A stretch of DNA of 64,000 bases, from NCBI GenBank assembly GCA_041694815.1, contig JBGFSC010000004.1:1-64000 (forward strand). Reading direction: 5' to 3'. A program made the position numbers and the translations under genes. The notes under the pieces are model-generated. The model was not told the DNA's origin. It did no database searches and saw only the letters and a list, made by a program, of their open reading frames with translations. This document shows, one piece after another, positions 1,465 through 15,660 of this stretch (within the stretch, counting starts at the first letter, position 1; every line of letters begins with the position of its first letter). This DNA is from Elusimicrobiota bacterium. GTDB taxonomy: Bacteria > Elusimicrobiota > Elusimicrobia > UBA1565 > JACRDR01.

Positions 1465-2805
1465 TCATGGCCTTGCGGGAAGCAACAGCAGAACGCCGGA
1501 GGCCGGCGGTATCTTCATCGTGGCAGGATTGACCGGAACGCGCTCGGGCAGACGGAGCGCACGGCCCGGAAGCTCAAGGCCCAATGGAAGGGTCTCGGTC
1601 GCATGCTTGTTCACTGCCAGGAGGAACTGCTCCTCCGTGGCGGGGTCCTCGAGCCGGCGCGCGCGGACCCAGTTCCCGTCGCGAGCATACGGGATGCCGC
1701 CGTTTCCCTCCACCAGTCTTAGCCGGGGAAGCCAGGGGGCCAGGGGGGCTATCTGCCGGGCGATTCGGGCGATGGCTTCCCACATCGGAGTCTTCGTCTT
1801 GCCTTTCACCCGCGCTCCCCGTATCCCTCGGCGCGCTCGAGCTTCCCAGTCGGGCATCTTCGCGGGGTCTAGATCCCTCACCCCGCGGAACCGCAGTATG
1901 CTTCCGTCATCTTGATGCTCCGTGTAGTCATGGTACCACCAGAAATCCATGCCTTGGGCGCCGTTGGCGTATCCCAGCCACACCTGGAGTCCGATATCCT
2001 CTGGCGTCGGGAAATGCCCCTTGGGGACCCATCGGCCCTTCTCCACCTTATAAACGTAGGTGGAGCTGGGGACGAGGTAGAACCTAGCGCCGACCTTCCG
2101 GGCCGCCTGAGCGACCTGTTCGATCCAGACCTCGAGCCAGTCCACGAAATCGTGGAAAGGCTCTTCGGGGAGGCCGAAGCCGGCCGTGACAAGCTCGGGG
2201 CGCGTGCGCGCGGTGCCCGAAGACGCCATGTCCGCCCAATGATATTCCACGAAGACCGGATGATGCGGGTCCCGCTGTCGATAGTCGTCGATTAAGGTTC
2301 GCAAGTCCTCGAAAATCCACGGCTCATCCAGGGATATTTCCTCGGTGACGTTCCACGCGAGCAGCGTGCGATCCTCGCGGTAGCGTTCCGCCAGCATCCG
2401 GTAGTGGGGAATCATGCGCTCCCGGAATAGCCGCCGCGCCTCCTCCACCGTGGGCGCCCCGAAATGCGCCTGGTCCTTCGGGTTCCAGTTGTAGTAGTCG
2501 CGCATGAACTGGCCGCCTTCCGGGATCAGCCGCATACCGCGCTCGCGGCAAAGCTCGATCCAAAGCGGCAGGTCGTCGAAATTCAGGTTGTTGGGGTGGA
2601 CCGTATTGATGCCCATGGCCCTCATGTCATCGAGGACCCGACTGATGTAGGCACGATTGGAAAGGCCCTCGGCCTTGGCGTAGTCGTCGACCGTTCCGCT
2701 CATGTACATGGAGAATACGTGGGGAGCTCGATCGATGTCCCGAGGCTTGCCTGCAGCCGGTTCTATTGAGGCAACGGCGACGAGGGCGAGGAGGGTTTTG
2801 AGCAT
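1465..2805 (-). CDS. Secreted glycoside hydrolase-like TIM-barrel protein (clan GH-A-like)
   Basis: Signal peptide; DDMRAMGINTV, LLAWNVTEE, DPHHPV and GAQGMDFWWY motifs. Confidence 0.65.
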   Translation of the reverse strand: MLKTLLALVAVASIEPAAGKPRDIDRAPHVFSMYMSGTVDDYAKAEGLSNRAYISRVLDDMRAMGINTVHPNNLNFDDLPLWIELCRERGMRLIPEGGQFMRDYYNWNPKDQAHFGAPTVEEARRLFRERMIPHYRMLAERYREDRTLLAWNVTEEISLDEPWIFEDLRTLIDDYRQRDPHHPVFVEYHWADMASSGTARTRPELVTAGFGLPEEPFHDFVDWLEVWIEQVAQAARKVGARFYLVPSSTYVYKVEKGRWVPKGHFPTPEDIGLQVWLGYANGAQGMDFWWYHDYTEHQDDGSILRFRGVRDLDPAKMPDWEARARRGIRGARVKGKTKTPMWEAIARIARQIAPLAPWLPRLRLVEGNGGIPYARDGNWVRARRLEDPATEEQFLLAVNKHATETLPLGLELPGRALRLPERVPVNPATMKIPPASGVLLLLPARP

Positions 2806-2806
2806 C

Positions 2807-4336
2807 CTAGCGACCCATGAAACGCATCAAGGCGTCATATTTCGGCGCCCGCTCTCGCGGCTGGGTGAGGTACTCGAGCGCTCCCCAGTTCCCCGGCTGC
2901 TCGAATCCGCCGCAATCCGTCAGGTGCATGAAGAGGCCGCCGCCGGCCTCGGCCCAGTCGTTGAGGTAGCGCGTGTAGAGCTCTCCCATACGCGGATCGC
3001 GGTTGGCCGCGCGGTAGAGCGCGTCGAGCTCCGGGGCCTCGATTCCCGACATGTTCCACAGATGCTGGCCGCCCTCATAGGCGATCAGCGGCAGGCCGTA
3101 CTTCTTGGCGACCGCGGCGTGGGCGAGCATCTGAGCCTTGGCTTTCGGCAGCGAGGAGGTCTCGAGCTCGCGGAAGAGTTCGTCGAGATTCATTTTGCGC
3201 GTGCGCTCGACGGACGCGGCGTCGGAGGCCAGTTCGGTGCCGAAATAGGGCCCGACCGCGATCGCGTCGACATGCTTGCGCGTATCGCCGAACGAGAGCG
3301 CGATCTCATCGGAGTATTCCGGCATCCCGTCGAACTGAAAACTCAGCACGCGCACGAGCCGGCCCTTGCCCAAGACCTGCTCCCAGATCGAGAAGACCTC
3401 GGCCGCGCGCTTCGCGTAAAAGCGCATCGTCGCCTCGTACGGGTCCTCGCTGAGCTTGAGCGCCAGTCCCCTGTCCCGAGCATAGGCCGTCGCGGGGTAG
3501 TGGTCGTTCCAGACCTCGTTGGAGTATTCTAGATAGACCTTGCGCTTCGGGTGGAGGGTTTTTTTGACGAGACCGGCGAAGCGGCGCACGTAGTCGTCGT
3601 CGGCCTCGTGGGTGATCCCGAACCAGGGGTCGGCCGAGAGCTTGTTGGCGAGCGCGACCATGACCTCGATCGGCGCGCCCTTGATCGACCAGCGCGCGTC
3701 TCGCGGGAGCGCGCGGTCTTTCCAGCGCGACGCCGCGCTGTCCTGCGCGCTCTCGCCGAACTGCCAGATCATCATGCGCAAAACGCGGTAGCCCTTGAGC
3801 CGCTCAAGGAAGAGCGGGTTGAATACCTCCGAGGGGGGCGTCTTGGACTTCTCGGGCGTGATGCGGATATTGCGCAGCGGATCACGAGGGTCGGTCGCGA
3901 CCAGGCCCAGCACTGCATCCCCATCCTGCCCCGGGGCGATCTCGATGAGGTCGCGCCGAGGGCGACGCTCGATGAGCCTTGCCGTGTCCGAGTACTCTAG
4001 CGTCCCCCTCCCTTCATACGCGACCACCCAGCGGCGCGGGAGCAGCCCCGGGATCTTCGAGACGCGCGAGAACAGCGTGGCATAAGCGATTTGGCCAGGC
4101 GCAAGCCGCCGAACCCAGCCACGCGAGTCCAGATCGAGCTTGCGCTTGTCTCCCCAAGTCTCGGCCGTTCCCGAGACCCACTCGCTGGCCGTCTTGAAGG
4201 CGTCGATGAAGGGAAGCGAGCCGCTCCAGTACGAGAGCCCGTTGAGATTGACGCCGATCGGAGGGCGCGGCCCCGCGGCAAGAACCTTTCCATGGGCCAG
4301 GAGCAGGATGACAATCGCCCTCGAGATGATGCGCAT
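2807..4336 (-). CDS. Secreted glycoside hydrolase / 'cellulose-binding protein'-like
   Basis: Signal peptide; IGVNLNGLSYW, VYLEYSNEVWN, IAYEGGQH and WGALEY motifs. Confidence 0.7.
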   Translation of the reverse strand: MRIISRAIVILLLAHGKVLAAGPRPPIGVNLNGLSYWSGSLPFIDAFKTASEWVSGTAETWGDKRKLDLDSRGWVRRLAPGQIAYATLFSRVSKIPGLLPRRWVVAYEGRGTLEYSDTARLIERRPRRDLIEIAPGQDGDAVLGLVATDPRDPLRNIRITPEKSKTPPSEVFNPLFLERLKGYRVLRMMIWQFGESAQDSAASRWKDRALPRDARWSIKGAPIEVMVALANKLSADPWFGITHEADDDYVRRFAGLVKKTLHPKRKVYLEYSNEVWNDHYPATAYARDRGLALKLSEDPYEATMRFYAKRAAEVFSIWEQVLGKGRLVRVLSFQFDGMPEYSDEIALSFGDTRKHVDAIAVGPYFGTELASDAASVERTRKMNLDELFRELETSSLPKAKAQMLAHAAVAKKYGLPLIAYEGGQHLWNMSGIEAPELDALYRAANRDPRMGELYTRYLNDWAEAGGGLFMHLTDCGGFEQPGNWGALEYLTQPRERAPKYDALMRFMGR

Positions 4337-4346
4337 CAGGCGTCGC

Positions 4347-5102
4347 CTACGGCTTGGCTCTTGCGCCTGTCCGCTTCGGAAGGCCGGTCAGGTGCAGCCG
4401 CCAACCCTCGTCGTTATGGACCGGCGCCGACACGCGTTGCCCGGCCTTGAGGCCCTTGATCACCGCAGTTTGGGCGGGAACCGGCCGCCAGTTCTGGCCG
4501 TCCGGAGCATTCCACTGGGGGTTGATCATGACCTCTTGGTCCACCGCGGACTGTGCCTTGGCTGCCTTGTTGTCTGCAGCAGTTTCGATCTTCTCGACCT
4601 TGAGGAAAAACGCCTCCCCGCCGACCTCGTCGCGCCTGACGACCCGGCCCTGCAGCGTGCCCTTGAAGCCCATGAGATTCTGCGGCACGAGCGGCTTGAC
4701 CGCGCTCGCGCGAGGTTCGGCCTTGGGGATCGACGCAAGCTCCTTGGCATCGAGCACGCCGTCGCTGCCCTTGTCGTAGCGCTTGAAGTCCACCTCGTCC
4801 CACCACCATTCATCCGCCTGGACCTTGCCGTCCTGGCTCGTGTCCATGGCCGCGATGATCTCGGGATTCTGGCAAGGCTTCTCGGTCCAGGCGACATGGT
4901 TCCACAGGTCCTGCTCGCTTAAGAACCCGTCCTGATCCATGTCCTTGATATCGAACATCTTACGGTCCCAGCCGATCGGCTCGATCTCGGCCCAGGACAG
5001 CTTCCCGTCTCCGTCCGAGTCATGGCCGCGGATGAGTCCATGCGACCAAGCCGAAGGCGTCGCTGCGATCAGCGCGAGCACCGTCATTGCGAGTATCTTC
5101 AT
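4347..5102 (-). CDS. Secreted EF-hand protein with C-terminal beta-rich domain
   Basis: Four EF-hand-like loops: DSDGDGKLSWAE, DMDQDGFLSEQD, DTSQDGKVQADE, DKGSDGVLDAKE. Confidence 0.8.
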   Translation of the reverse strand: MKILAMTVLALIAATPSAWSHGLIRGHDSDGDGKLSWAEIEPIGWDRKMFDIKDMDQDGFLSEQDLWNHVAWTEKPCQNPEIIAAMDTSQDGKVQADEWWWDEVDFKRYDKGSDGVLDAKELASIPKAEPRASAVKPLVPQNLMGFKGTLQGRVVRRDEVGGEAFFLKVEKIETAADNKAAKAQSAVDQEVMINPQWNAPDGQNWRPVPAQTAVIKGLKAGQRVSAPVHNDEGWRLHLTGLPKRTGARAKP

Positions 5103-6661
5103 TGAGCCTCCTTCTGAGGATATGCCGGCCAGAGCGTGATCTGCGCCGAGCCATAAGCTGGCAGTACGAGCGGCACGCGCACCGAGCCGCTCTTAATGGG
5201 CTCGTCGAGCTCCCAGGCAGGCTCCTCTAGCCCCCGGCCGTAATCGGCGGCCGACTCGTCGATGCGCGTGATGGCCCAGTGGAGCTTCGGCGTCTCGAAC
5301 GGCACGCCCTTGAAGAAGACCGCCGTCTCCACGGTCTCGCTCGTATGGTTGTTGACCGTGGCGACCACGCTTCCCTCCTTGGTATGGACCGCCATCGCCT
5401 CAAGGGGAGCGGGCGCTGACGCGCCGATGATCTTGCCGCTCGACATCGCGGCGGCCATTTGAAAGCCGGCGTAGAGCGGCGTCAGGAAGAGCTTCTCCCC
5501 GTGCAGGCGCACGAGGCTGACGCGCCGAACCTGGGTCAGGTCGTAATGGAGCTTCGGGTCTCCGGCCAGGTTATTGTCGTCGAAGAAAAACGAGTAATAA
5601 AGGGCCCTACGGAAACGGCGCCGCGTGGGGTCCTTGAACTCCCGGATGACGTTATGCACGAGATGGGACGCTCGCCGATGCGGCTTGGGCTCCTCCGCGA
5701 TGTAGTCGCTGCTCCAAGACCCCCAGCCGCTTCCGCCAAGCACCTTGGGGGTGTTCGGATCGAAGCCGTGCTCGGCGAGCATCTTCGAAACCGCCTCGGC
5801 GCCGTCTGAGAGCCGGTCGCTCGACCAGGCGTAATCCTGCCAGGCGATGAAGTCCAGGCCCGCGCGACGATCGGCTGAGACCGAGGCGTTGTAGCGCGCG
5901 AGCGCCGCGATCCAATCCTTGAGCTCGAATGGCGCGTCCTGGGTCCACTGTGTCTTCCGCCAGTTCATGGTCGCCGGCCCGCCCACTTGCGCCGTCGGAT
6001 CGGCGGACTTGATGGCGGCGTAAGTCGCCGCGTAGAACGCGACATGCTCCTTTAGGAGCTGCCGGGCGTCGGAGACGCCGCTGCCCTTCCAGGAATCATG
6101 GTGGTCAGGCTCGCCAAGGCTGTGGTAGTAAAGCCCCTTGAGGCCGTGCTTCCCAGCCAGGCGGCCCACGACTTGCGCGACATAGTCAGACCATTCGCGC
6201 ATGGACTTCGGCGCGTAGACCGTGTACTCCGAATCCTCCGGGCGCGACGACAGCGCGCGCGGAACATGTCCTAAGTACACATGCGGCCGGGCCTTGAGCG
6301 TCTTGACGATGAGCTGGACGCGCTTATCGAATTCCGTGAAGTCGTAGGCCAGCTTGCCGTCCGGCCCGCGCGAGGGCTCGATTAACGGCTGGCGGGTCTC
6401 CTTGCCATCGATCGTTTCGAGGTAAAAATGCCGGAAGCCGAGATCGCTCCAGGCCTTGACGATGGGGCTCTTAGGGTCGCCCATGACGGCCTCGAGCGCG
6501 CCGCCGGCGCCGAGAAAGTCGGAGATCGCGGCCGCGTCCCCGATCGGCTTTAGGCAATCGACCACGATTTTGCCAGGCGCTGCCGCATGGCTGACGGAGC
6601 ATAGGCCGAGGGCGACGAAGCCCATGACGATCGCAAGGGAATATCGTGGGCGAAGGTTCAT
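5099..6661 (-). CDS. Secreted GH39-like glycoside hydrolase
   Basis: YDFTEFDK, VPRALSS, GEPD, IKSADPTAQVGGPA motifs and a C-terminal beta-sandwich. Confidence 0.7.
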   Translation of the reverse strand: MNLRPRYSLAIVMGFVALGLCSVSHAAAPGKIVVDCLKPIGDAAAISDFLGAGGALEAVMGDPKSPIVKAWSDLGFRHFYLETIDGKETRQPLIEPSRGPDGKLAYDFTEFDKRVQLIVKTLKARPHVYLGHVPRALSSRPEDSEYTVYAPKSMREWSDYVAQVVGRLAGKHGLKGLYYHSLGEPDHHDSWKGSGVSDARQLLKEHVAFYAATYAAIKSADPTAQVGGPATMNWRKTQWTQDAPFELKDWIAALARYNASVSADRRAGLDFIAWQDYAWSSDRLSDGAEAVSKMLAEHGFDPNTPKVLGGSGWGSWSSDYIAEEPKPHRRASHLVHNVIREFKDPTRRRFRRALYYSFFFDDNNLAGDPKLHYDLTQVRRVSLVRLHGEKLFLTPLYAGFQMAAAMSSGKIIGASAPAPLEAMAVHTKEGSVVATVNNHTSETVETAVFFKGVPFETPKLHWAITRIDESAADYGRGLEEPAWELDEPIKSGSVRVPLVLPAYGSAQITLWPAYPQKEAQ

Positions 6662-6843
6662 GAACGAAAAGTCTATAGTTTTTGAATGTTCATTGCCATC
6701 TGAGCCTATATGCCGACCGCCATTCCGCCGGGTCGATTGCTGGATAAAGGCCTATTACAGAGGCCTCTTCGGGTAGAAAGTGCTACCTATGTCTTCGGTA
6801 TGATGTGGAACCGATCTGTCCGGTATGGACCTGTCCACATTGT

Positions 6844-6874
6844 CTGCCCGAAACCGACAATATCAGAACCTGGC
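6844..6874 (+). repeat. Left att-like half site
   Basis: CTGCCCGAAaCCgAC matches CTGCCCGAAtCCtAC (10510) at 13/15 positions. AACCTGGC lies at +23, the exact mirror position of the GCCAGGTT arm in the full sites. Confidence 0.6.
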
Positions 6875-7255
6875 TCAGGGTATGTCCGTTCGAAAGCCAA
6901 TCTTGGGACGCGGTTCTTCCGGCGGGTCCATGAGGTCCCTCAGCGCCTCAAATAGGCGCTCGATATCCCGATCATGCCCGAGAACCTTGCGCTCAAGCTC
7001 TTCCAGTTTCGCCAGGGCCGTGCTGCGCCACCGTTCCCGCGTCTTCGCGTAAACGAAGGCTCGCATGATCTCGATATTTGCCCGGACAGCTCGTGGACTT
7101 CGGAGCACGCTGGATAGCATCGCGATGCCTTCCTGGGTAAACACCAGGGGCAGCGAGCCTCCGAGCGACCGCCGGGAAGGTATCGCATTTTGCGATACCA
7201 AGGATTCGGCCTCCGCAGCTCAGTTGGAACATGAAGTCGTCTGGAAACCGCAGTA
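6875..7255 (-). pseudogene. ORF6N (KilA-N-related) DNA-binding protein, 5'-truncated and frameshifted
   Basis: RFPDDFMFQL in one frame; [29 protein letters not shown]...RPKIGF in another. Confidence 0.8.
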
Positions 7256-7317
7256 TCAGCCGGCTCTTGCGAGAACCGCAAAGGCTCCAAGAGGAAATTT
7301 TATAGAATGCCCTGACG

Positions 7318-8397
7318 ATGTTCAATCTTGTTCCAAGGATTGTCGCGCTGTGGGTAGCAGCCTTGCTTCATCCATTTTTGACCACGTCCTCGTGGGCCGA
7401 GTCCAATTCTCCGAGTGCGGTTCGAATAAGCTCCTCACCACTCGAACCCTATGAATATTGGATGGTTAAGCGTTCGTCTGGCGAGCCACTTGATGTCTAC
7501 GTGGCTCGAACAGAAGACCAGCATAAACCGCTGATCGTCTTCATACAAGGCTCAAAATGCTTCCCGCTTTTCATGGTCCACAAGAAAGACGGCAAGCCGC
7601 GAACTAAGTCGACCCTCTTGTTCTACGGCATGGAAAAAGAAATCCTTCCGCATGCCCATTTTGCCCTAATCGAGCGTCGCGGACTAAAATCTTTCGGTCC
7701 TCCTCCCAACTCCGAAGCAGAAGCGTCCCAGATGGCGCGATGCACCGCCGCGCGAGGTGGAGTCTCAAAGACCGAGCGCGTCGCTGACGTCGTTGACGTT
7801 GTACGCGCTTTTTCCGGGAAGGCATGGGTTGGCGGCGTATTCCTGATAGGCCACTCGGAAGGCGCCTATGTCGCCAGCGGCGCTGCCAAAACCTTGGGTG
7901 ATGGAATTCTTTCCGGGGTCGGCCTTCTATCGGGACCGGGACCAACGCAATTTTTCGATTTCGTCTTGCAAGCGCGAAAAAGAAGCGATAACGCCGGCGT
8001 TAAGAAGGTGTTAGACGAGATGATTTGGGTTACGGCACCGGGAGCAAAAGGGGATTACCGAGGGGCTGATGTAGAACGACAAATTACTTATGGAATTACG
8101 TCGACGGATATCGATGATCTTCGTGCTTCCAAAGTGCCTCTCTTTGTCGCAGCCGGAGACAAAGACGAAAAAGCTCCTATCGAAAGCACGGAGGTTTTTG
8201 TCGCCGAAATGCTCCGTGACCCGCAGCGTAAACTCCGTTATCTCATTCTACCAGGTCTCGGCCACGACTATACTGACCTCACTGGGGCCGATCACACGAA
8301 CGACGTTCTTAAGACTTTTATCGATTGGACCCTTTTGAAAGACAAGCCCCGCGACGTCATTGTGGGAATACCATCGCGCCTCGATGCCGTTCGGTAG
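7318..8397 (+). CDS. Secreted alpha/beta hydrolase
   Basis: Signal peptide; GHSEG nucleophile, GDKDE acid and GLGH histidine motifs. Confidence 0.85.
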   Translation: MFNLVPRIVALWVAALLHPFLTTSSWAESNSPSAVRISSSPLEPYEYWMVKRSSGEPLDVYVARTEDQHKPLIVFIQGSKCFPLFMVHKKDGKPRTKSTLLFYGMEKEILPHAHFALIERRGLKSFGPPPNSEAEASQMARCTAARGGVSKTERVADVVDVVRAFSGKAWVGGVFLIGHSEGAYVASGAAKTLGDGILSGVGLLSGPGPTQFFDFVLQARKRSDNAGVKKVLDEMIWVTAPGAKGDYRGADVERQITYGITSTDIDDLRASKVPLFVAAGDKDEKAPIESTEVFVAEMLRDPQRKLRYLILPGLGHDYTDLTGADHTNDVLKTFIDWTLLKDKPRDVIVGIPSRLDAVR

Positions 8398-8426
8398 CCG
8401 TGATGCAATAGACAAGCCCTTAAGAA

Positions 8427-8459
8427 AAGGCTCTGGATTGCAAATGCAACCAGAGCCTT
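8427..8459 (+). terminator. Hairpin after the hydrolase gene
   Basis: AAGGCTCTGG...CCAGAGCCTT stem with inner TTGCA/TGCAA. Confidence 0.55.
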
Positions 8460-8535
8460 GACCAGTTCTCGCCAGGTTTGCCCAGCGTACAAAGTGGCTG
8501 CCCTACTCCTACGCTGGACAAACGCTTGCGAGAAC
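8458..8535 (+). repeat. attP-like palindromic site, copy 1
   Basis: Arms 8465-8489 and 8510-8535 are imperfect inverted repeats around a 20-bp core containing TGGCTGCC. 8458-8503 matches 10470-10515 at 45/46 bp. Confidence 0.8.
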
Positions 8536-8701
8536 CGAAAAAGTCTTTTGTTCTTTGGCATAATGTCGATTTCAAGATAGTTCTCGCAGCCCACGGCCGC
8601 CAAGAGATTCTTGCCTTAAACACCTTTTCGGCGCCACCGGCCAGTTCTCGCAACAACCGCAAGACCTGATAGGCGAGCGTTTTATACAATCCACTCTATC
8701 G

Positions 8702-9206
8702 ATGTCGAATCTGCTGCCGATTGAAACGATTGAGCGCCGGATATTCCTGATCCGCGGCCATAGGGTCATGATCGACCGCCATTTGGCGGAACTGTACGGC
8801 GTCACCACGATGGCCCTTAATCAGGCCGTCAAGCGGAACTCGAAGCGCTTCCCCGAAGATTTCATGTTCCATTTGACCAAAGCCGAGCGGGACGAGCTTA
8901 TCACAATCTGTGATAACCTACGCCCCAGCACTGCCCCACGCTTTCACGGAAAACGGCGTCGCCATGCTCTCGAGTGTTCTGCGGAGCAAGCGGGCCATCC
9001 TGGTCAACATTCAGGTCATGCGGACGTTTACGCGCTTACGCCAACTGATCTCGACCCATAAGGAACTTGCCAGAAAAATCGAGGCCCTGGAACGTAAGGT
9101 CAAATCCCACGACCATCAAATCGAGGCAATCTTCGAGGCCATCCGCGAGCTCATGAACCCTCCGGAAACCGGACGCAAGGTCATTGGTTTTCGTTCCGGC
9201 TCATAA
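8702..9206 (+). pseudogene. ORF6N domain protein, frameshifted
   Basis: N-half [18 protein letters not shown]...RFPEDFMF and C-half [16 protein letters not shown]...VIGF are in different frames; short deletion near 8920. Confidence 0.85.
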
Positions 9207-9207
9207 C

Positions 9208-10401
9208 ATGAACTTCCAGCGCATTTGCATTAGGCTGAACGCAGATTGTGTCGTCCAGGCAAGGATCTGTGCAGGCGCCTTCATTTTGCTTGCGGTTCCC
9301 GCCTTATTGTCTGCCGCACCGGCAGCGCCCTCATGCAAGCCGTTCTTCTCCTCGTTGGAACTTCACGATCTCTTGCGCCGTCTCGATGCTTTGAAGAGAA
9401 ATCCTCCACCATGGCCTGGATACCGCCCCGAGCAACAGGTGGTTGTATTCCTGGACCAATATCAAGATGCAAGGTGTGCGGTCATCTGGAAGGCAGGCAA
9501 AATTCTTGAAAATGTTCGTCTCCGAACCGGTTTCTCCCTTCCAACTCCCGTGTACTGGTTTTATCTAAGATCAGAACCTGATAAGGTCCCCAAGTCCTTC
9601 CGGGATTTCGCAAGAATGATGCTGGACGTACCGCCCGAGTTAGACCGTTCCTTGAGGCGGCACAACATCGATCGAGCTCTCCTCTTCAACTTCACTATCC
9701 CGGAAAATGCCCTCGCTCGCATGAGATCACCGGAATACTTCGATCAGTTGAATGTCTTCAGGCTCCACATGGTGGTCCATGAGGGGTTTCACCTGAATGT
9801 TGAATTTCCTAAGTGGTTCTATCTGAAAACAACCCACCTCTGGCCATCTTGGGACCGACAACCTGAAAGGACGGAAGTTGTTAAGCGTTGCTACCGTGCG
9901 AATGAAATGGTCCTAGCAGCCTTCCAAACCGAGCGCGCTCTCCTGGCGGAGGCTTTCGAGAAAATATATCTACAAAGCGACACCGGCCGTGGGCGCGCCG
10001 CCGCCGTCGAGTTCATCAAAGAGCGCGACCAAAGGAGAGAACTGCTTAAAGAGATACGAATACCGTCCGCCGCTGAGCCCACGGTTTCGCTCTCTTGTCA
10101 AGACGCAGAGTCGATCATGGAGTTGGAAGAGGGGTTGCTCGACTATGTTGCCTTCTCTGCCAATCGGAGCATCAAGGGGCTCAGTCGTACACAAATCCAT
10201 TCATGGCTCTCAAAACCTCTTGGAGATCACCCGGATAAAGACCCAGAGCCTTACTATCGCTTCGGCACCATGCAGATGCTTATCCTTGAGAGTCTCTCCA
10301 ATGACAGGGCCGAGTTGCTGCGAAAGATTGGCGCCTCAAGCGGTCCTTCGGGCGGCATCGAAGGCAGCCTTCGCGCCCTGCTCAAGATTCCGACCCCATA
10401 G
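9208..10401 (+). CDS. Secreted HExxH (gluzincin-like) putative metallopeptidase
   Basis: Signal-like N-terminus, VVHEGFHL plus downstream LEEGLLDY; start codon uncertain. Confidence 0.6.
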   Translation: MNFQRICIRLNADCVVQARICAGAFILLAVPALLSAAPAAPSCKPFFSSLELHDLLRRLDALKRNPPPWPGYRPEQQVVVFLDQYQDARCAVIWKAGKILENVRLRTGFSLPTPVYWFYLRSEPDKVPKSFRDFARMMLDVPPELDRSLRRHNIDRALLFNFTIPENALARMRSPEYFDQLNVFRLHMVVHEGFHLNVEFPKWFYLKTTHLWPSWDRQPERTEVVKRCYRANEMVLAAFQTERALLAEAFEKIYLQSDTGRGRAAAVEFIKERDQRRELLKEIRIPSAAEPTVSLSCQDAESIMELEEGLLDYVAFSANRSIKGLSRTQIHSWLSKPLGDHPDKDPEPYYRFGTMQMLILESLSNDRAELLRKIGASSGPSGGIEGSLRALLKIPTP

Positions 10402-10403
10402 CG

Positions 10404-10431
10404 AGCCCCAATCGCGGGTGCGATTGGGGCT
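10404..10431 (+). terminator. Hairpin after the cargo gene
   Basis: Perfect 12-bp stem AGCCCCAATCGC/GCGATTGGGGCT. Confidence 0.6.
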
Positions 10432-10469
10432 GTTGACCTTCTCGGGCTTCGACCGGCCGACCGAGCCGA

Positions 10470-10547
10470 TTGACCAGTTCTCGCCAGGTTTGTCCAGCGT
10501 ACAAAGTGGCTGCCCGAATCCTACGCGCATCAATCGCAAGCGAGAAT
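10470..10547 (+). repeat. attP-like palindromic site, copy 2
   Basis: Direct repeat of copy 1; partial inverted arms (TTCTCGC...GCGTA / TACGC...GCGAGAA). Confidence 0.8.
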
Positions 10548-10563
10548 CAAAAAATCCTTTGTT

Positions 10564-10989
10564 TTGTGGCATAACGCTCCGTGTAGGGTGATTCTCGCTC
10601 CGCATGGCCGCACTCGAATCGTCGATGTAAAAGCTTTTGAGTCGCATCAATCGATTCTCGCTAAGCGGGTCCGCCAGCCGAAACCACCGCTCATTCAAAC
10701 CCAACTCAGGCAGGCCCATGACCTCAAGGCACGTCTCGCCAACGAGCCCGGCCTGACGCGGGAGGCCGTGGCCCGCGAAACCGGCATCAACCCCTCCCAA
10801 TTGACCCGCTTGCTCCGACTGACCGATCTCGCGCCTGAAATCCAAGGACATATTTTGGCTCTACCACCCTCGATCCGCAGATGTCCCGTCACCGAGCGCC
10901 GCCTGCGGCCGGTCGCCATGATCAAGGATCGGCCGGGACAATTGAACGCCTTCCGCCGCCTGCTGGCGCCTATTCCTCAATTGCCTTGA
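10564..10989 (+). CDS. HTH module resembling the C-terminal tail of large serine recombinases of DUF2924-type elements
   Basis: QAHDLKARL...AVARETGINPSQLTRLLRLTDLAPEIQGHIL. The frame stays open upstream through the att site (RFVQRTKWLP). Confidence 0.6.
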   Translation: MWHNAPCRVILAPHGRTRIVDVKAFESHQSILAKRVRQPKPPLIQTQLRQAHDLKARLANEPGLTREAVARETGINPSQLTRLLRLTDLAPEIQGHILALPPSIRRCPVTERRLRPVAMIKDRPGQLNAFRRLLAPIPQLP

Positions 10990-11062
10990 CCTGGCTCGGG
11001 GAAGGAAGGTACGACCTCCACCTGCCTTTGCTGTTGGGCGGGGGGGCAGGGAGGTTTGCGAG

Positions 11063-11326
11063 ATGAGATACAACAGGATCAGATGGTTCGAGTTTCCGTT
11101 CGTAGCTCCGAAAGGCAAGGGGTCAAAGCCGCAACAACCAAAATGGGAGGTTCGAGAGGTCGATCCGCCCGAGAAGACGTTACCGATTCAGCCCTGGAAC
11201 GACCCATTCCGTCTAACGCCGAAGCAGCGACGAGAGCGGATCATCCAACTCTTGGCCGAAGGACTCATACGATTGTGGGCAAAGCAAGAGAAAGCCGCGA
11301 GACCGTCGTGGATTCCTCCGACGTAG
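11063..11326 (+). CDS. Small MGE-associated hypothetical protein
   Basis: RBS GGAGG; LTPKQRRERIIQLLAEGLIRL helix resembles small proteins of resolvase/DUF2924 loci. Confidence 0.5.
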   Translation: MRYNRIRWFEFPFVAPKGKGSKPQQPKWEVREVDPPEKTLPIQPWNDPFRLTPKQRRERIIQLLAEGLIRLWAKQEKAARPSWIPPT

Positions 11327-11372
11327 AAGGGAACTTTTTAAGGGGGTCGATCGTATATATCTATAGAACCCC

Positions 11373-12143
11373 ATGAACCAAGATCCCCTAGAAATGGTAA
11401 AATTACGGTCAGTCAGTTACCTGACCTCCATGGCTCATCACAAAGGCGGACATTCGATGGTCGCAGAAGAACTCCTGTCCATGGGGTTGGATCGTTTTAG
11501 CACGATCCTCGCCGATCCCCCGTGGCGATTCTCCAACCGCACAGGAAAGATGGCCCCGGAGCATAGGCGCCTCTCTCGATACGCAACAATGTCGAATCAG
11601 GAGATCATGGAACTCCCCGTCGCTCAGCTAGCGCGCCAGAAAAGCCATCTCTATCTGTGGGTTCCCAATGCGCTGATTCTCGAAGGACTCGAGGTCATGA
11701 AGCGTTGGGGGTTCACGTACAAGACGAATATCATCTGGTACAAGATCCGCAAGGATGGCGGGCCCGACGGCCGTGGCGTCGGTTTCTATTTCCGCAACGT
11801 CACCGAGCTGGTCCTTTTCGGCGTTCGCGGTTCTTTCCGGACCTTGCAACCTGGGAGAAGCCAGGTCAATATCGTCTCGACTCGGAAGAGAGAGCACTCC
11901 CGGAAGCCTGACGAGCTTTATCCGATCATCGAGAAGTGCAGCCCGGGCCCATACCTGGAACTTTTCGCCCGCTATCCCCGAACGGGCTGGAGCTGTTGGG
12001 GTAACGAAGTTGGCCCTGACGCCAAGAGCAAGCCGTACATCAGCACCTACTCCCCGGAGCCTCGGCAGGCCTTATTGCTCGACGGGAATGGCCGTAACGG
12101 TTATCGCGCGACCAACGGTCATCGAGCGTTGGTCAAGAAGTAG
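11373..12143 (+). CDS. MT-A70 family N6-adenine DNA methyltransferase
   Basis: ILADPPW catalytic motif, HLYLWVPN, WGFTYKTNIIW, REHSRKP, YLELFAR; true start may be 11430 or 11457. Confidence 0.92.
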   Translation: MNQDPLEMVKLRSVSYLTSMAHHKGGHSMVAEELLSMGLDRFSTILADPPWRFSNRTGKMAPEHRRLSRYATMSNQEIMELPVAQLARQKSHLYLWVPNALILEGLEVMKRWGFTYKTNIIWYKIRKDGGPDGRGVGFYFRNVTELVLFGVRGSFRTLQPGRSQVNIVSTRKREHSRKPDELYPIIEKCSPGPYLELFARYPRTGWSCWGNEVGPDAKSKPYISTYSPEPRQALLLDGNGRNGYRATNGHRALVKK

Positions 12144-12228
12144 ACCTTCCTCCACAAAAAGCGCAAATAATCGCAACAGAAGCGGCATTTGCTAGAATGA
12201 CGCTTCGCGGTCGCGAAAACACATTGCC

Positions 12229-12903
12229 ATGGGAATAGAACTCGTACCTGAAGACGTTCGCAAGCTATACGAGGTCCGGGAATGGAAACACGCCTGCGCC
12301 GTTCTCAAGCAGGATTTCCCGAAAGAATGGAATGACCTAATCGAGGTTCTACGGGGGTTCCGCCTAAAACGCTCGCACATGACGGATCCAGGAAAGAACA
12401 TCGGTCCGGTAGCCAAGCACTTCAACAAGGCTTTCTACGATCGAAAGTGGGCGAAGGAACGTTTCAAGACCGTGATCGAAGTGAACGGTCAGAAAAACGA
12501 GACACCAACACACGAAGTCGACTGCGTAAAGGGACGGGTAGCTCTTGAGATTGAGTGGTCGAACAAGGATCCGTTTTTCGATCGGGACCTAAACAACTTC
12601 CGCCTACTCTTCGAGCTTCGCGCGATAAGCGTTGGGGTGATCATCACAAAGTCGGACGATCTAATGGACGTGATGAAGGAAATCTGGGTCGTTACCAAGA
12701 AGGGCACCAAGACGACGGTTTGGAAGAAATACGGGAACTCAACGACTTGGATGAATCAGTTAATCCCCCGCATTGAAGGCGGCGGAGGAGGTGGCTGTCC
12801 GATCTTAGTATTCGGAATACAAGCTGCAACGATGTCGGGACCGACTGAAGGGACTATTTTAGAATCCGAGGACTTGAATACAGACGACGAAGGGGCAGAA
12901 TAG
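12229..12903 (+). CDS. BglII/BstYI-family type II restriction endonuclease
   Basis: THEVD...VALEIEWSNKDPFFDRDL, GGGGGCPILVFGI; adjacent to the MT-A70 gene. Confidence 0.88.
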   Translation: MGIELVPEDVRKLYEVREWKHACAVLKQDFPKEWNDLIEVLRGFRLKRSHMTDPGKNIGPVAKHFNKAFYDRKWAKERFKTVIEVNGQKNETPTHEVDCVKGRVALEIEWSNKDPFFDRDLNNFRLLFELRAISVGVIITKSDDLMDVMKEIWVVTKKGTKTTVWKKYGNSTTWMNQLIPRIEGGGGGGCPILVFGIQAATMSGPTEGTILESEDLNTDDEGAE

Positions 12904-12940
12904 AGCCAGCTAGAAATTTCACCTCTCTCAATAAACAGCT

Positions 12941-14635
12941 CTAATTGTTTTGAAATTGTGATAAGCAATATTTCAGTTCATCGAGGTGGAGAACCTTAGT
13001 CGTACCTTCAACAATTTCTCGTGAACGCATAAGATATTTGCCTTTCGAACTTTTTGCTAACCCAACATAGGACTCAATCGGGCCCTTGCTGAGAATATGG
13101 ATATCATGGCAAGCAAGGTCCTTTTTAACCGCTTCAAATAAGGTCTGAAGTTTACTGTCGTCGGCCAAGGCCTTCCGCTTAGCCGAATTATCAGAATGTT
13201 TGGTTAACGCCTGGCAAAGCTCAGACAGTTGCTTATGACTTCCCAGCACCGATCCGGCCCCATCCCACGCGAAATCATCATCTAGCAAGGCCATCGCTCG
13301 AATTCCCAGAGCAGTTAGCACGTGCTTGACATCCGGCACCTTTGCCTTTCCGCCGCATTCGATGATGGCAACGTCATGCAGGAATCTCGGCCCTAAACCA
13401 GCCACCCGTGCGATTGCGCCTACCAGGTGGACATCGCTGGGACCTTCGACTAATAAGACGTTCCGATGAAAGAAGATGCGAGAGGCGCGCTGAAGATCCA
13501 GTATGAGTAAAACATCCTTTTCAATTATTTCAGATAGTTTGGTCAAATCCGTTTTTCGCTTCTTTGATAAAGTCTTATTCCCCTCAATCTCCTTGTCAAT
13601 AAATGTTAATTGCTTGAGCGTCGATGGGGAGAGCATGTTTGCCGAGTGCGTGGAGATTAATGTTTGGGCAGACTCGGCAATTTGCCCCAACGCATCACGC
13701 ATCTGCTCTTGGGAGCTCGGATGAAGGAAGAGCTCAGGCTCTTCAATCATTAGGAGAATGGGACGAGCAGCTGCGGCTGCACCTTTACGCAAGACCTTGG
13801 CGAGTGCCCGCAGAATGCTCAAGTATAATGCCCGCTGCACTCCTTGGCCTTTGCGGAAGTACGGAGTTCTTACTCCATCATCGACATCGATACTAACGTC
13901 TCCCAAAATACGCTTGATATCGGGAAGTGTCACTCGCAGTCGTGCTGATGTGCCCGAGAAAAATTCCTGGAGATTGGAGGTGATCTCGGCTTCGATCTCC
14001 CTCAACTCCTTTACACGTCCATCATGCCCACCAACAACATTCAGGAGTTTCTCCGCCTCCGCAAATGCTTTATCGAGCGTAGGCTGCGCTGTCTTTTCGA
14101 TCTCGGCCAGGATTAGGGCGAGCAGTTGCCCAAGAGGGCTTGTCGTCTTTCCTGTCGCGACGTCTGCCGCGTCAGCCAAGGCGCGAATAAATATTGGCTC
14201 AGGCAAAATTCGCTTAAGCTCCGCATCAATTCCTGTGGGCAATTTTGCATCCGTCCCATCTGCCGCAATCATCACAAGTGCACCTGGCTTTTCTACGCCC
14301 CTCCCAAACTGACGCCGCAGGTGCAGTGCGCCATCATTCAACATACTTTCTACTTTCTTCTGCATGGCTTCTGAGGAGCATAAAGAGAGGTTGCTACCCA
14401 CATTTTCAATCGTTCCTTCGATTGCCACGGGCTGTTCCGGATTCCAATAGTCTGAATCTTGAATTGACTTTGGCGTTCCCGAAAGAAAAATCTCTACGGC
14501 ATCCAAGACATTTGATTTGCCAGCCCCGTTGCGCCCGATGACAATCGTAAATTTCTCAAAGGAGAATGATTCCTCCATAAACGAACGGAAATTTTTGACC
14601 TTCAGTTCCTTCAGCCTAACTGGATGTGTAGTCAT
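12941..14635 (-). CDS. OLD-family ATP-dependent nuclease (ABC ATPase plus TOPRIM)
   Basis: VKNFRSF, Walker A GRNGAGKS, KGQGVQR signature, IEEPELFLHP, STHS; TOPRIM LVEGPSD...GGK...LDDD. Confidence 0.9.
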   Translation of the reverse strand: MTTHPVRLKELKVKNFRSFMEESFSFEKFTIVIGRNGAGKSNVLDAVEIFLSGTPKSIQDSDYWNPEQPVAIEGTIENVGSNLSLCSSEAMQKKVESMLNDGALHLRRQFGRGVEKPGALVMIAADGTDAKLPTGIDAELKRILPEPIFIRALADAADVATGKTTSPLGQLLALILAEIEKTAQPTLDKAFAEAEKLLNVVGGHDGRVKELREIEAEITSNLQEFFSGTSARLRVTLPDIKRILGDVSIDVDDGVRTPYFRKGQGVQRALYLSILRALAKVLRKGAAAAARPILLMIEEPELFLHPSSQEQMRDALGQIAESAQTLISTHSANMLSPSTLKQLTFIDKEIEGNKTLSKKRKTDLTKLSEIIEKDVLLILDLQRASRIFFHRNVLLVEGPSDVHLVGAIARVAGLGPRFLHDVAIIECGGKAKVPDVKHVLTALGIRAMALLDDDFAWDGAGSVLGSHKQLSELCQALTKHSDNSAKRKALADDSKLQTLFEAVKKDLACHDIHILSKGPIESYVGLAKSSKGKYLMRSREIVEGTTKVLHLDELKYCLSQFQNN

Positions 14636-14657
14636 GGCGCAATTCTCCTACTATGCA

Positions 14658-15341
14658 TCATTCCACGAGCCGCTGGATGGATTTTTTCACTGATGAGGGT
14701 TTCCCCTCTGTCAGAATTTTTACCGTCTCCTTCCTCAAACGCCTTTCCTCAAAACGGACCCGCTTCGCATCGATCGCATTCCGAATGCTGCTTTGCACGG
14801 AATTGAGCCGGCTTTGGCCCGTCTTGAATTCGACAAACGTAATACCAGTGACTTTCCCTTGGTAATAGCCATCGAATACAACAAAATCAATTGGGTCAAA
14901 AACTGGGCGGACATCATAAGGATGGTGTCCAAAGCCAGGAAACATGGGGGCTATTTTTTCAAGCGTCTTCCCGAGCTGACCCGCCCGAGACTGAGCAATT
15001 GCCTTTTGCCGAATTTCCTTCTCTCGAGTTATCATTCGTTTGTCGACTTGGACTTCGACTTTCTCACGCCAAGTTTCTTCAACTGCCTCGAGTTCAATGC
15101 CGTGATCATCTTGCATTTCCTCGATTTGAGCTTCGAGCTCTTCTAATTGTTCATGGAGTGAATCTCTGTCTTTTTTTAAGCGCGCAAGCATGTCGCGAGG
15201 TGGTTCTTTACCATAGGAGAGTTTCACTTCCGAAAGACGAAACGGTTCAGCGCAATGTGGACAACGACCAAAAATATTTTTCTCGTGCTTATAGAAAGAG
15301 AGGAGCGAACCAATATTCCCGCTGAGATTGATGTCTGACAT
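14658..15341 (-). CDS. Holliday-junction-resolvase-like PD-(D/E)xK endonuclease (Endonuc_Holl-like) with N-terminal CxxC and coiled coil
   Basis: CPHC, heptad-rich segment, GKTLEKIAP, PIDFVVFDG, ITFVEFKTG. Confidence 0.85.
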   Translation of the reverse strand: MSDINLSGNIGSLLSFYKHEKNIFGRCPHCAEPFRLSEVKLSYGKEPPRDMLARLKKDRDSLHEQLEELEAQIEEMQDDHGIELEAVEETWREKVEVQVDKRMITREKEIRQKAIAQSRAGQLGKTLEKIAPMFPGFGHHPYDVRPVFDPIDFVVFDGYYQGKVTGITFVEFKTGQSRLNSVQSSIRNAIDAKRVRFEERRLRKETVKILTEGKPSSVKKSIQRLVE

Positions 15342-15370
15342 TTTCTTCCCCCACCTGCCCTAGAAGTTTA

Positions 15371-15402
15371 AGAGGCCGAGCCGTTATTTCGGCCCGGCCT
15401 CT
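15371..15402 (-). terminator. GC-rich hairpin between tRNA-Gln and the nuclease operon
   Basis: 13-bp stem with one mismatch; weak U-tract. Confidence 0.4.
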
Positions 15403-15528
15403 CGATGATTCTCGATTTCGATTGTTCCGCGTACAACATGGACCCCGCTCCTAGGACTCAATCGATTTCGCGCATTTTATCCGGTCAAACGCGTTTTCCG
15501 ATAGCGTTTGCCTTGTTTAATTCAAATT

Positions 15529-15599
15529 CTGCCGGGCTAGGATTCGAACCTAGAATAAGTGGTTCAGAGCCACCCGTGATACCGTTTCACCACCCGGCA
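15529..15599 (-). tRNA. tRNA-Gln(CTG), CCA not encoded
   Basis: TGCCGGG/CCCGGCA acceptor stem, GGTGG-CTCTGAA-CCACT anticodon arm, GGTTCGAATCC T-arm. Confidence 0.97.
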
Positions 15600-15660
15600 A
15601 TGAAGCGTCATTGTACAAAATTGCCGCCGGGCAGGGCCTCTTTTGCGGGTTAGGCCGCCG

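Follow-up and report, generated by a model that had tools for sequence, protein, structure and literature searches.

How can an array of mobile units grow serially beside a single tRNA gene when none of the units carries an integrase? This question is raised by the region between position 6844 and a tRNA-Gln(CTG) gene in an Elusimicrobiota bacterium (GenBank assembly GCA_041694815.1, contig JBGFSC010000004.1, positions 1 to 64,000; the whole of this 64,000-nucleotide stretch is hereafter referred to as the window). The initial annotation, made from the sequence alone, had read the region as integrase-less units left by serial integration at tRNA-Gln and separated by attP-like junctions of a large serine recombinase (LSR). 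Comparison with relatives, whose loci and proteins are designated here by L and P numbers, backs that account, and the sites of the window are almost certainly attachment-site (att) junctions of an LSR family that targets tRNA 3' ends. What had been missed is that the helix-turn-helix (HTH) gene at the start of unit 3 (10507-10989) is, judged by homology, the detached C-terminus of such an integrase, an identification that is new here.

This reading frame has no conserved start codon and opens directly at the att core; it shares 62% identity with the C-terminal end of P0002, an LSR of 707 aa with matches to Resolvase, Recombinase, Zn-ribbon and HTH_ParB. Its structural model (predicted local distance difference test score, pLDDT, 86) has the Noc/ParB DNA-binding domains as closest folds, with a best E-value of 0.005 and none at E<=0.001. 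A check for the ParBc domain returned only HTH_ParB matches, and TIGR00180 scored 17.6 bits against a cut-off of 58, which places the tail outside ParB/Noc membership. Tails of this kind are present in 31 of the 401 sampled genomes of the phylum, and the tail profile recovers 1,090 representatives at E<=1e-10. A core-like motif lies in frame just upstream in 28 tail hits (two of which look spurious); 18 of these 28 lack an in-frame ATG near the start, and in six the part of the start that was scanned contains none of the codons ATG, GTG and TTG. The dN/dS of the tail is 0.18-0.40 in 12 pairs above 58% identity, values that average over autonomous ancestors as well.

The two parts of the gene can be rejoined on paper and are found joined in nature. 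Virtual excision, in which the LSR at the tRNA was joined at the core to the tail at the far end, 8-67 kb away, gave a continuous reading frame of 689-757 aa in all nine contigs, one of them through a shifted frame at both ends. Natural LSR-HTH fusions of 707-784 aa occur in P0002, P0034, L078 and L146, and partial ones in L058, L190, P0156 and P0158. P0156 consists of an LSR 88% identical to that of L008 and a tail identical to that of L054, whose own element has a different LSR; by this composition, it is a chimera made at a tandem junction. The frame at the core is shifted on both sides in unit 2 and in P0002, and standard in unit 3. Of 86 distinct related LSR loci on viral contigs, 72 encode the HTH in a gene of its own immediately downstream, one has it fused to the LSR, 11 lack it (several of these being truncated) and two end in a tRNA; DUF2924 was found in both of the two ORFs (open reading frames) scanned upstream of viral-contig LSRs. 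Since the HTH is mostly a neighbouring gene in these loci, the partnership of LSR and HTH is old, and in the clade of the window attP has come to lie between them. A recombination-controlled domain switch is likely on this evidence, and there is a reasonable probability that the tail changes recombination or its regulation. The motif TTCTCGC was considered as a tail-binding site and rejected; it has nine copies in the array, 4-fold the genome rate, but family-wide it was observed seven times after tail cores against 7.5 expected, and it is partly explained by codons.

The assignment to a tRNA-targeting LSR family is carried by L009, a locus of the same taxonomic order in which an LSR reading frame ends in the left arm of the window and this arm passes into tRNA-Gln at the CTGC core, the LSR itself being cut by the contig end. 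Positions 10404-10513 of the window are 77% identical over 110 nt to the end of this LSR gene, and unit 2 thus retains about 110 nt of a lost integrase; the left arm of site 2 is 88% identical to L009 and 97% to L057. The initial annotation had expected a recombinase ending in RF..R.KWLP; for the left arms of sites 2 and 3, the integrase frame, as in L009 and P0002, is instead ...DQFSPGLPSVQSGC, both frames being present in the family. With P0002 as the query, matches were obtained in 44 of the 101 genomes of the order. In the best 30 LSR loci, 23 LSRs run antisense into a tRNA called by ARAGORN (Gln, Asn, His, Asp or Ser), and the rest mostly reach contig ends or other junctions. A 7-nt arm profile, trained on LSR-adjacent arms with tRNA arms outside the training set, peaks at position 20 in all 18 LSR-adjacent left arms and at position 15 in tRNA T-arms, which matches the attP/attB shift described for LSRs, where the zinc-domain motif is reported to lie 5 bp nearer the centre in attB than in attP (PMC3783163). 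Conservation of the host-side halves is near zero past a few bases; the tRNA half would therefore dominate target choice, which would allow repeated insertion at the tRNA junction. Arms of the window's type are also seen at non-tRNA sites that share CTG alone (L057:3439-3540 and L111:5930), suggesting off-target insertion. The same tRNA bears marks of a different insertion chemistry in L006:1005-1332 (a tandem duplicate of tRNA-Gln(CTG)) and L007:4303-4345 (a displaced 43-nt tRNA 3' fragment), and L180:1443-12632 contains one LSR in two copies with identical C-termini, 9.6 kb apart, with a third LSR between them and none beside a tRNA.

The 46-bp direct repeat noted initially (8458-8503 and 10470-10515, one mismatch) is real and belongs to a wider homology of 113 nt at 84%. 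The palindrome of about 71 bp with its axis between CT and GCC, proposed for both copies, is good at site 2 (8465-8535, 1-nt bulge) and weaker at site 3 (16/42). The right-half site at 6844 was likewise found as described, matching the site-3 right arm at 13 of 15 positions with AACCTGGC at the mirror offset. The arms are inverted about a central dinucleotide, the axis falling between T and G at sites 1-3 and at the tRNA; the dinucleotide is equal at both ends of units 1 and 2 and of the whole array, and differs at the ends of unit 3 (CC vs TG). When every left arm was compared with every right arm, the best pair was the left arm of site 4 (15406-15441) with the right arm of site 3 (24/30; binomial P ~1e-9, uncorrected), and a repeat finder returned 15406-15433 as complementary to 10522-10549. 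The left arm of site 3 is fully complementary to the right arm of site 2 (14/14), with which the left arm of site 2 has one mismatch. For units 2 and 3 the inner arms are best paired with each other, and such matching across each unit fits each having once been a circle with a palindromic attP.

Three units had been recognised. A fourth site had been overlooked: unit 3 extends over 10510-15442 and is followed by a mini-unit, which is the reason why the tRNA-side arm had looked weak. The units measure 1,654 bp, 2,012 bp and 4,932 bp, with the 87-bp mini-unit at the tRNA, and their GC content is 0.52-0.54 within the array as against 0.61-0.63 in the flanks. The right half of site 4 resembles the tRNA half-site one base out of register and bears the variant arm motif of unit 3 itself; a comparable junction in L097 keeps exactly to the tRNA register. 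Site 4 could represent a decoy attB carried by a mini-element, or else part of a tRNA that has decayed; tRNA-Ala as the origin of its core was ruled out by a register mismatch. The 27-nt arm of site 1 recurs in 14 of the 101 genomes of the order, covering 10 genera, often twice within 1-5 kb, with no match for a reversed-pattern control, and in L115 an LSR-like C-terminal reading frame enters the same arm. The codon-position test of the site-1 tail peptide (80/70/90) was uninformative, and the left-arm pattern had no match in metagenome contigs. A second direct half-site copy, possibly an accessory site, is present about 88 nt past the site-1-type arm in L093, L096, L103, L107, L113, L114 and L115.

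The internal sites had been described as following a cargo gene and a hairpin. The hairpins are strong, but the one before site 3 (10404-10431, z -4.5) is part of the remnant of the integrase-gene 3' end. The hairpin before site 2 is a probable terminator of read-through from the tRNA. The suggestion that the hairpin at 6803-6840 was the original tRNA terminator was abandoned, as its z is -1.4, 21 of 200 shuffles fold equally well and terminator scoring at 6803 returned none. The hairpin within the LSR coding sequence (L008:1150-1185, L017 and window 10404-10431) keeps its pairing despite changes on both sides between the L008/L017 type and that of the window.

The contents of the units vary between genomes, as had been anticipated. 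The chassis of unit 2 is shared by L111 at 79% over 731 nt (right arm, tail truncated near the same point, and ORF6N), where it is followed by an unrelated cargo gene of 326 aa, the same hairpin and the left arm. A shared chassis with other cargo indicates that the integrase was lost before the chassis spread and that cargo was exchanged. The boundaries, LSR class, tRNA target, attP/attB register, in-frame tail and cargo exchange are thus established at the level of sequence comparison. The functional calls for the cargo genes were borne out by Pfam and PADLOC matches; the HExxH protein had no match in Pfam, PADLOC or NCBIfam. The resemblance between the promoter-like block at 7259-7300 and its unit-2 counterpart at 8636-8690 suggests that unit 1 is a chimera of two units. 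The coordinates of the features are collected in Table 1.

Table 1. Features of the tRNA-Gln array (positions in the window)
Feature	Position	Strand	Description
Site 1	6844..6875	+	Distal attR-like junction; core CTGCC and P-type right arm; starts a short integrase-tail peptide, truncated in the window
ORF6N remnant, unit 1	6875..7240	-	C-terminal half, inverted; PF10543 E 0.004; 51% identical to the unit-2 ORF6N half
Promoter-like block	7259..7300	+	Putative promoter; resembles 8636-8690 ahead of the first cargo gene of unit 2 (repeat family D4, alignment)
Alpha/beta hydrolase, unit-1 cargo	7318..8397	+	PF12697 E 3.5e-6; PF00326
Hairpin before site 2	8427..8457	-	U-rich tail on the tRNA strand; -23.4 kcal/mol, z -4.4
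Site 2	8458..8540		Hybrid attP-like junction; 71-bp palindrome 8465-8535; core CTGCC at 8498
Truncated integrase tail, unit 2	8497..8669	+	Shifted (GC) frame; 66% to P0002 residues 527-576
ORF6N gene, unit 2	8702..9206	+	PF10543 E 2.5e-21; a 14-nt deletion shifts the frame (gene intact in L111, 179 aa)
HExxH-motif protein, unit-2 cargo	9208..10401	+	Family unnamed; Atlas clusters unnamed at 0.94-0.96, recognition below threshold
LSR-gene 3'-end remnant, unit 2	10404..10509	+	Ends in the site-3 left arm; 83% to L057; includes hairpin 10404-10431
Site 3	10470..10549		Hybrid attP-like junction; core CTGCC at 10510
Headless integrase C-terminal tail, unit 3	10507..10989	+	ParB-like HTH, 160 codons from the core; PF17762
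TPEER ORF, unit 3	11063..11326	+	87 aa, small, helical, 'TPEER' motif; normally just upstream of an LSR; conserved in L111
MT-A70 methyltransferase and BglII-like restriction endonuclease, unit-3 cargo	11373..12903	+	PF05063, PF09195; PADLOC MTase_II
OLD-family ATPase/TOPRIM nuclease and Holliday-junction-resolvase-like endonuclease, unit-3 cargo	12941..15341	-	PADLOC Old E 7.5e-102; PF20469, PF10107
Hairpin before site 4	15370..15403	-	-29 kcal/mol, z -7.0
Site 4	15406..15470		Unit-3 left arm; core altered to ACCCC (15442); right half resembling a tRNA
Mini-unit	15442..15528		87 bp; P-like arm at its end, register off by 1 nt
tRNA-Gln(CTG)	15528..15600	-	ARAGORN; insertion target; acceptor stem = core, T-arm = B half-site

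Matches to the profile of the TPEER protein lie at most 400 nt upstream of most LSRs of the family, and the gene is kept in many integrase-less units; its product is a candidate directionality factor. In L061:12866-13342, L066:14657-15082 and L147:6246-6650, the TPEER protein has a lone Recombinase domain (PF07508) as its fusion partner, an apparently catalytically dead att-binding protein found in several integrase-less units and one autonomous element.

The array is probably an accretion product at tRNA-Gln of LSRs whose attP-spanning gene faces the tRNA 3' end, its units being LSR-less deletion derivatives. An LSR would bind the acceptor stem and T-arm as an attB half-site, and the P arms of the circle, which are 5 bp longer. 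The tRNA junction would stay usable, so that each newcomer would land between the tRNA and the previous element and leave behind hybrid palindromes of two P arms, such as sites 2 and 3. Integration would sever the LSR from its in-frame ParB-like HTH tail, left headless at the far end, and circularisation or the insertion of a neighbour would restore an LSR-HTH protein of 690-780 aa. The fused form may be the integration-competent or attP-specific one, the truncated form serving the integrated state, perhaps with TPEER as the directionality factor. As deletion derivatives, the units would have kept the arms, the hairpin and sometimes the tail and TPEER, with the LSR lost and the cargo swapped, and could later have moved with the LSR of a helper, singly or as a block; the chances that single units moved in trans are about evenly balanced.

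Several observations weigh against this account. The arms of unit 1 pair at only 12 of 30 positions, and the centre of site 4 is CC, not TG. The virtual joins are not independent tests, as eight of the nine share one frame, the cores differ at +1 in two of the nine (which may pair different elements), one has weak arm symmetry, and one distal core lies at a contig start. Unit 2 retains a truncated tail and L111 an interrupted one, so that not every cassette needs it. Classical LSRs, as described in PMC3783163, neither recombine attL with attP nor use attL without a cofactor, so that insertion at an occupied tRNA junction needs relaxed directionality. No cognate LSR for the array was found in the genome, which is 97.8% complete. 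The high share of integrase-less units in relatives (29 of 30 inter-junction units of 0.56-7.8 kb, from 23 loci) comes from 28 hand-picked loci of <=20 kb, with large autonomous elements excluded. Neither an empty site nor a relative sharing these flanks was recovered: of 100 further genomes from the order, one has the glycosidase gene of the left flank, and the 4.5 kb inspected there contain no tRNA; the nuclease homologues of the right flank are not beside tRNA-Gln among the relatives listed.

Some of these points would suit an alternative in which the units are grounded relics that arrived as autonomous elements and lost the integrase in place, or moved in cis only, together with a neighbouring autonomous island, the att sites being fossils and single units immobile by themselves. 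ORF6N is broken in units 1 and 2, the core of site 4 is altered and the genome lacks a cognate LSR, and for the 15 ssrA islands of Dehalococcoides that lack an integration module, cis-mobilisation or fixation is proposed in PMC3146451. Against independent movement, a unit-3-like chassis follows the unit-2 chassis in L111, where no tRNA was found in the locus, in the same order as in the window, and the two may have travelled as one block. However, the near-identical deletion end-points with differing cargo in the window and L111 date the loss of the integrase before the spread, and near-identical site-1 arms flank many unrelated units of 1-5 kb across 10 genera, which makes the relic explanation rather improbable. 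That the repeat is simply a duplicated fragment of one decayed gene, unrelated to site-specific recombination, is scarcely credible. It does sit in coding remnants of integrase and tail, but the arms are complementary across unit ends, fuse to tRNA-Gln at the same base elsewhere and obey the attP/attB register, and the cargo varies; L009 and L111 refute the idea as far as sequence can.

A different objection concerns the tail alone, which could be a repressor or partition-like protein brought in by chance fusion or made from an internal start, the in-frame fusion reflecting ancestry only. Its fold is like that of ParB/Noc DNA-binding domains, most of the related modules have the HTH as a gene of its own, several tails contain internal TTG, GTG or ATG codons, and the AlphaFold model of P0002, built on an alignment of four sequences, has a low-confidence linker (predicted template modelling score, pTM, 0.30). 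This possibility is nevertheless a doubtful one, as the reading frame continues through the core in either frame subtype and six of the 28 tails offer no start codon in the scanned region.

The initial annotation had advised a genome search for a matching serine recombinase, which returned one LSR only, on contig C6, running antisense into tRNA-Asp. Although it belongs to the same class, its identity to P0002 is 33% and its arms differ, and it was judged non-cognate and unlikely as the helper; unless a helper comes in, the array probably stays stranded. This LSR (L002, G000:C6:42777-44532) adjoins prophage-like genes, and C2:11240-11602 on another contig encodes a tail of another kind, matching those fused to the Asp-type LSRs in L158, L159 and L163, which may be the far end of the element.

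Of 57 cargo proteins, 18 match PADLOC at E<=1e-15 (restriction-modification, OLD, Fic and candidate families), a count that is not a claim of defence enrichment; other cargo of relatives includes ankyrin-caspase proteins, kinases and metabolic genes. Recurrent caspase-domain proteins, several with ankyrin repeats, signal-peptide-like starts and mostly on the tRNA strand, are seen in the site-1-type cassettes of L099, L100, L102, L104 and L113, and a beta-lactamase-family (PF00144) protein with DUF3471 in a metagenome cassette (L114:2631-4268). The MT-A70 and BglII-like pair of unit 3 recurs in L053:4316-5577 and 13407-14600 (78% and 59% identity), in neighbouring units of another array. To the left of site 1, positions 1465-6661 hold a cluster of glycoside-hydrolase-like genes, which may be an older acquisition since its GH39-like gene occurs in only one of 100 other genomes of the order.

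The closest described system is that of the Dehalococcoides ssrA islands, and tandem LSR islands with integrase-less units are already known from it. These islands, as presented in PMC3146451, use the serine integrase DsiB and form tandem arrays at the 3' end of a structural RNA; the 3' end of the CcrB-like LSR overlaps attL, with its stop outside the island, and the 15 islands without an integration module parallel the units of the window. They differ in targeting tmRNA (ssrA), whereas the family of the window targets tRNAs and no tmRNA is present in the window, and in their dsiA/parBc/mom module, which is not seen in the window. According to a speculation of its authors, dsiB would be whole only in the circular form or with a neighbour alongside (PMC3146451); in the present family, what the gene lacks at its 3' end is identified as a conserved HTH, ParB-like and 130-195 aa long, and the units are often of 1-6 kb with one or two genes. 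Archaeal suicidal integrases of the SSV1/pTN3 type also have att inside the integrase gene, at a tRNA, so that integration splits the gene, and chimeras and rescue by an incoming element have been proposed (PMC8371274). They are tyrosine enzymes, and gene-disrupting recombinases are stated there to be exclusively archaeal, in contrast to the bacterial serine enzymes considered here, in which the catalytic, recombinase and zinc-ribbon domains stay together and the accessory HTH alone is removed. In mycobacteriophage BPs, which shows integration-dependent immunity, attP likewise lies inside a gene so that integration alters the C-terminus of a protein, but the gene is that of the repressor, a degradation tag is lost and the integrase is a tyrosine one (PMC3694055). 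Tycheposons are described as tRNA-targeting elements, mostly with tyrosine integrases (10.1101/2020.12.28.424599). Engineered C-terminal fusions of an integrase with its recombination directionality factor reverse direction (PMC12286644, in which the term 'ParB' does not appear), indicating that a C-terminal add-on can matter.

The modules of DUF2924-associated LSRs are similar in that their LSR is 36-45% identical and is flanked by the same small ORF upstream and the same HTH downstream; their HTH is a separate adjacent gene, with DUF2924 possible upstream, whereas here attP lies between LSR and HTH. The staphylococcal cassette chromosome mec (SCCmec) receives serial cassettes at one site, some of them without a recombinase. 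The relatedness of the present LSR to its CcrB (E 6.5e-45) is far below the cut-off, and the CcrA/B/C system targets rlmH, unlike the tRNA target, the one LSR and the split gene found here. Integrons are arrays of short cassettes with one recombination site per cassette, the newest lying next to a fixed target. The initial description of the array as integron-style is apt for its behaviour but not for membership, as IntI and a resident integrase are lacking in the window array; no tyrosine recombinase was found among the array ORFs and three scanned flanking genes, and the site geometry, with its palindromes, fits double-stranded LSR sites, attC sites, which are recognised as folded single strands, being probably absent. 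No description of an att-split LSR-HTH gene was found among the papers that the literature searches listed. The array itself is of a known sort; the novelty is the split integrase with a defined, conserved, recombination-joined tail.

A wider extrapolation, which must be regarded as tentative, is a phylum-wide cassette system in which the integrase gene would be its own switch, LSR-less cassettes would keep the headless tail because, by inserting between the tRNA and a resident element, they complete and reprogram its integrase, and chimeric integrases would arise at every tandem junction; if true, a serine recombinase would here drive an array that grows serially much as an integron does. The split gene supplies a missing piece for the speculation of 2011 that some serine integrases are complete only on the circle (PMC3146451), and it points to a possible directionality mechanism that may need no separate factor, in an enzyme class used for genome engineering. 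The tRNA-targeting LSR family seemingly reads mostly one half-site, which would allow repeated insertion, and the array illustrates the accumulation of restriction-modification, OLD and other cargo in an uncultured phylum.

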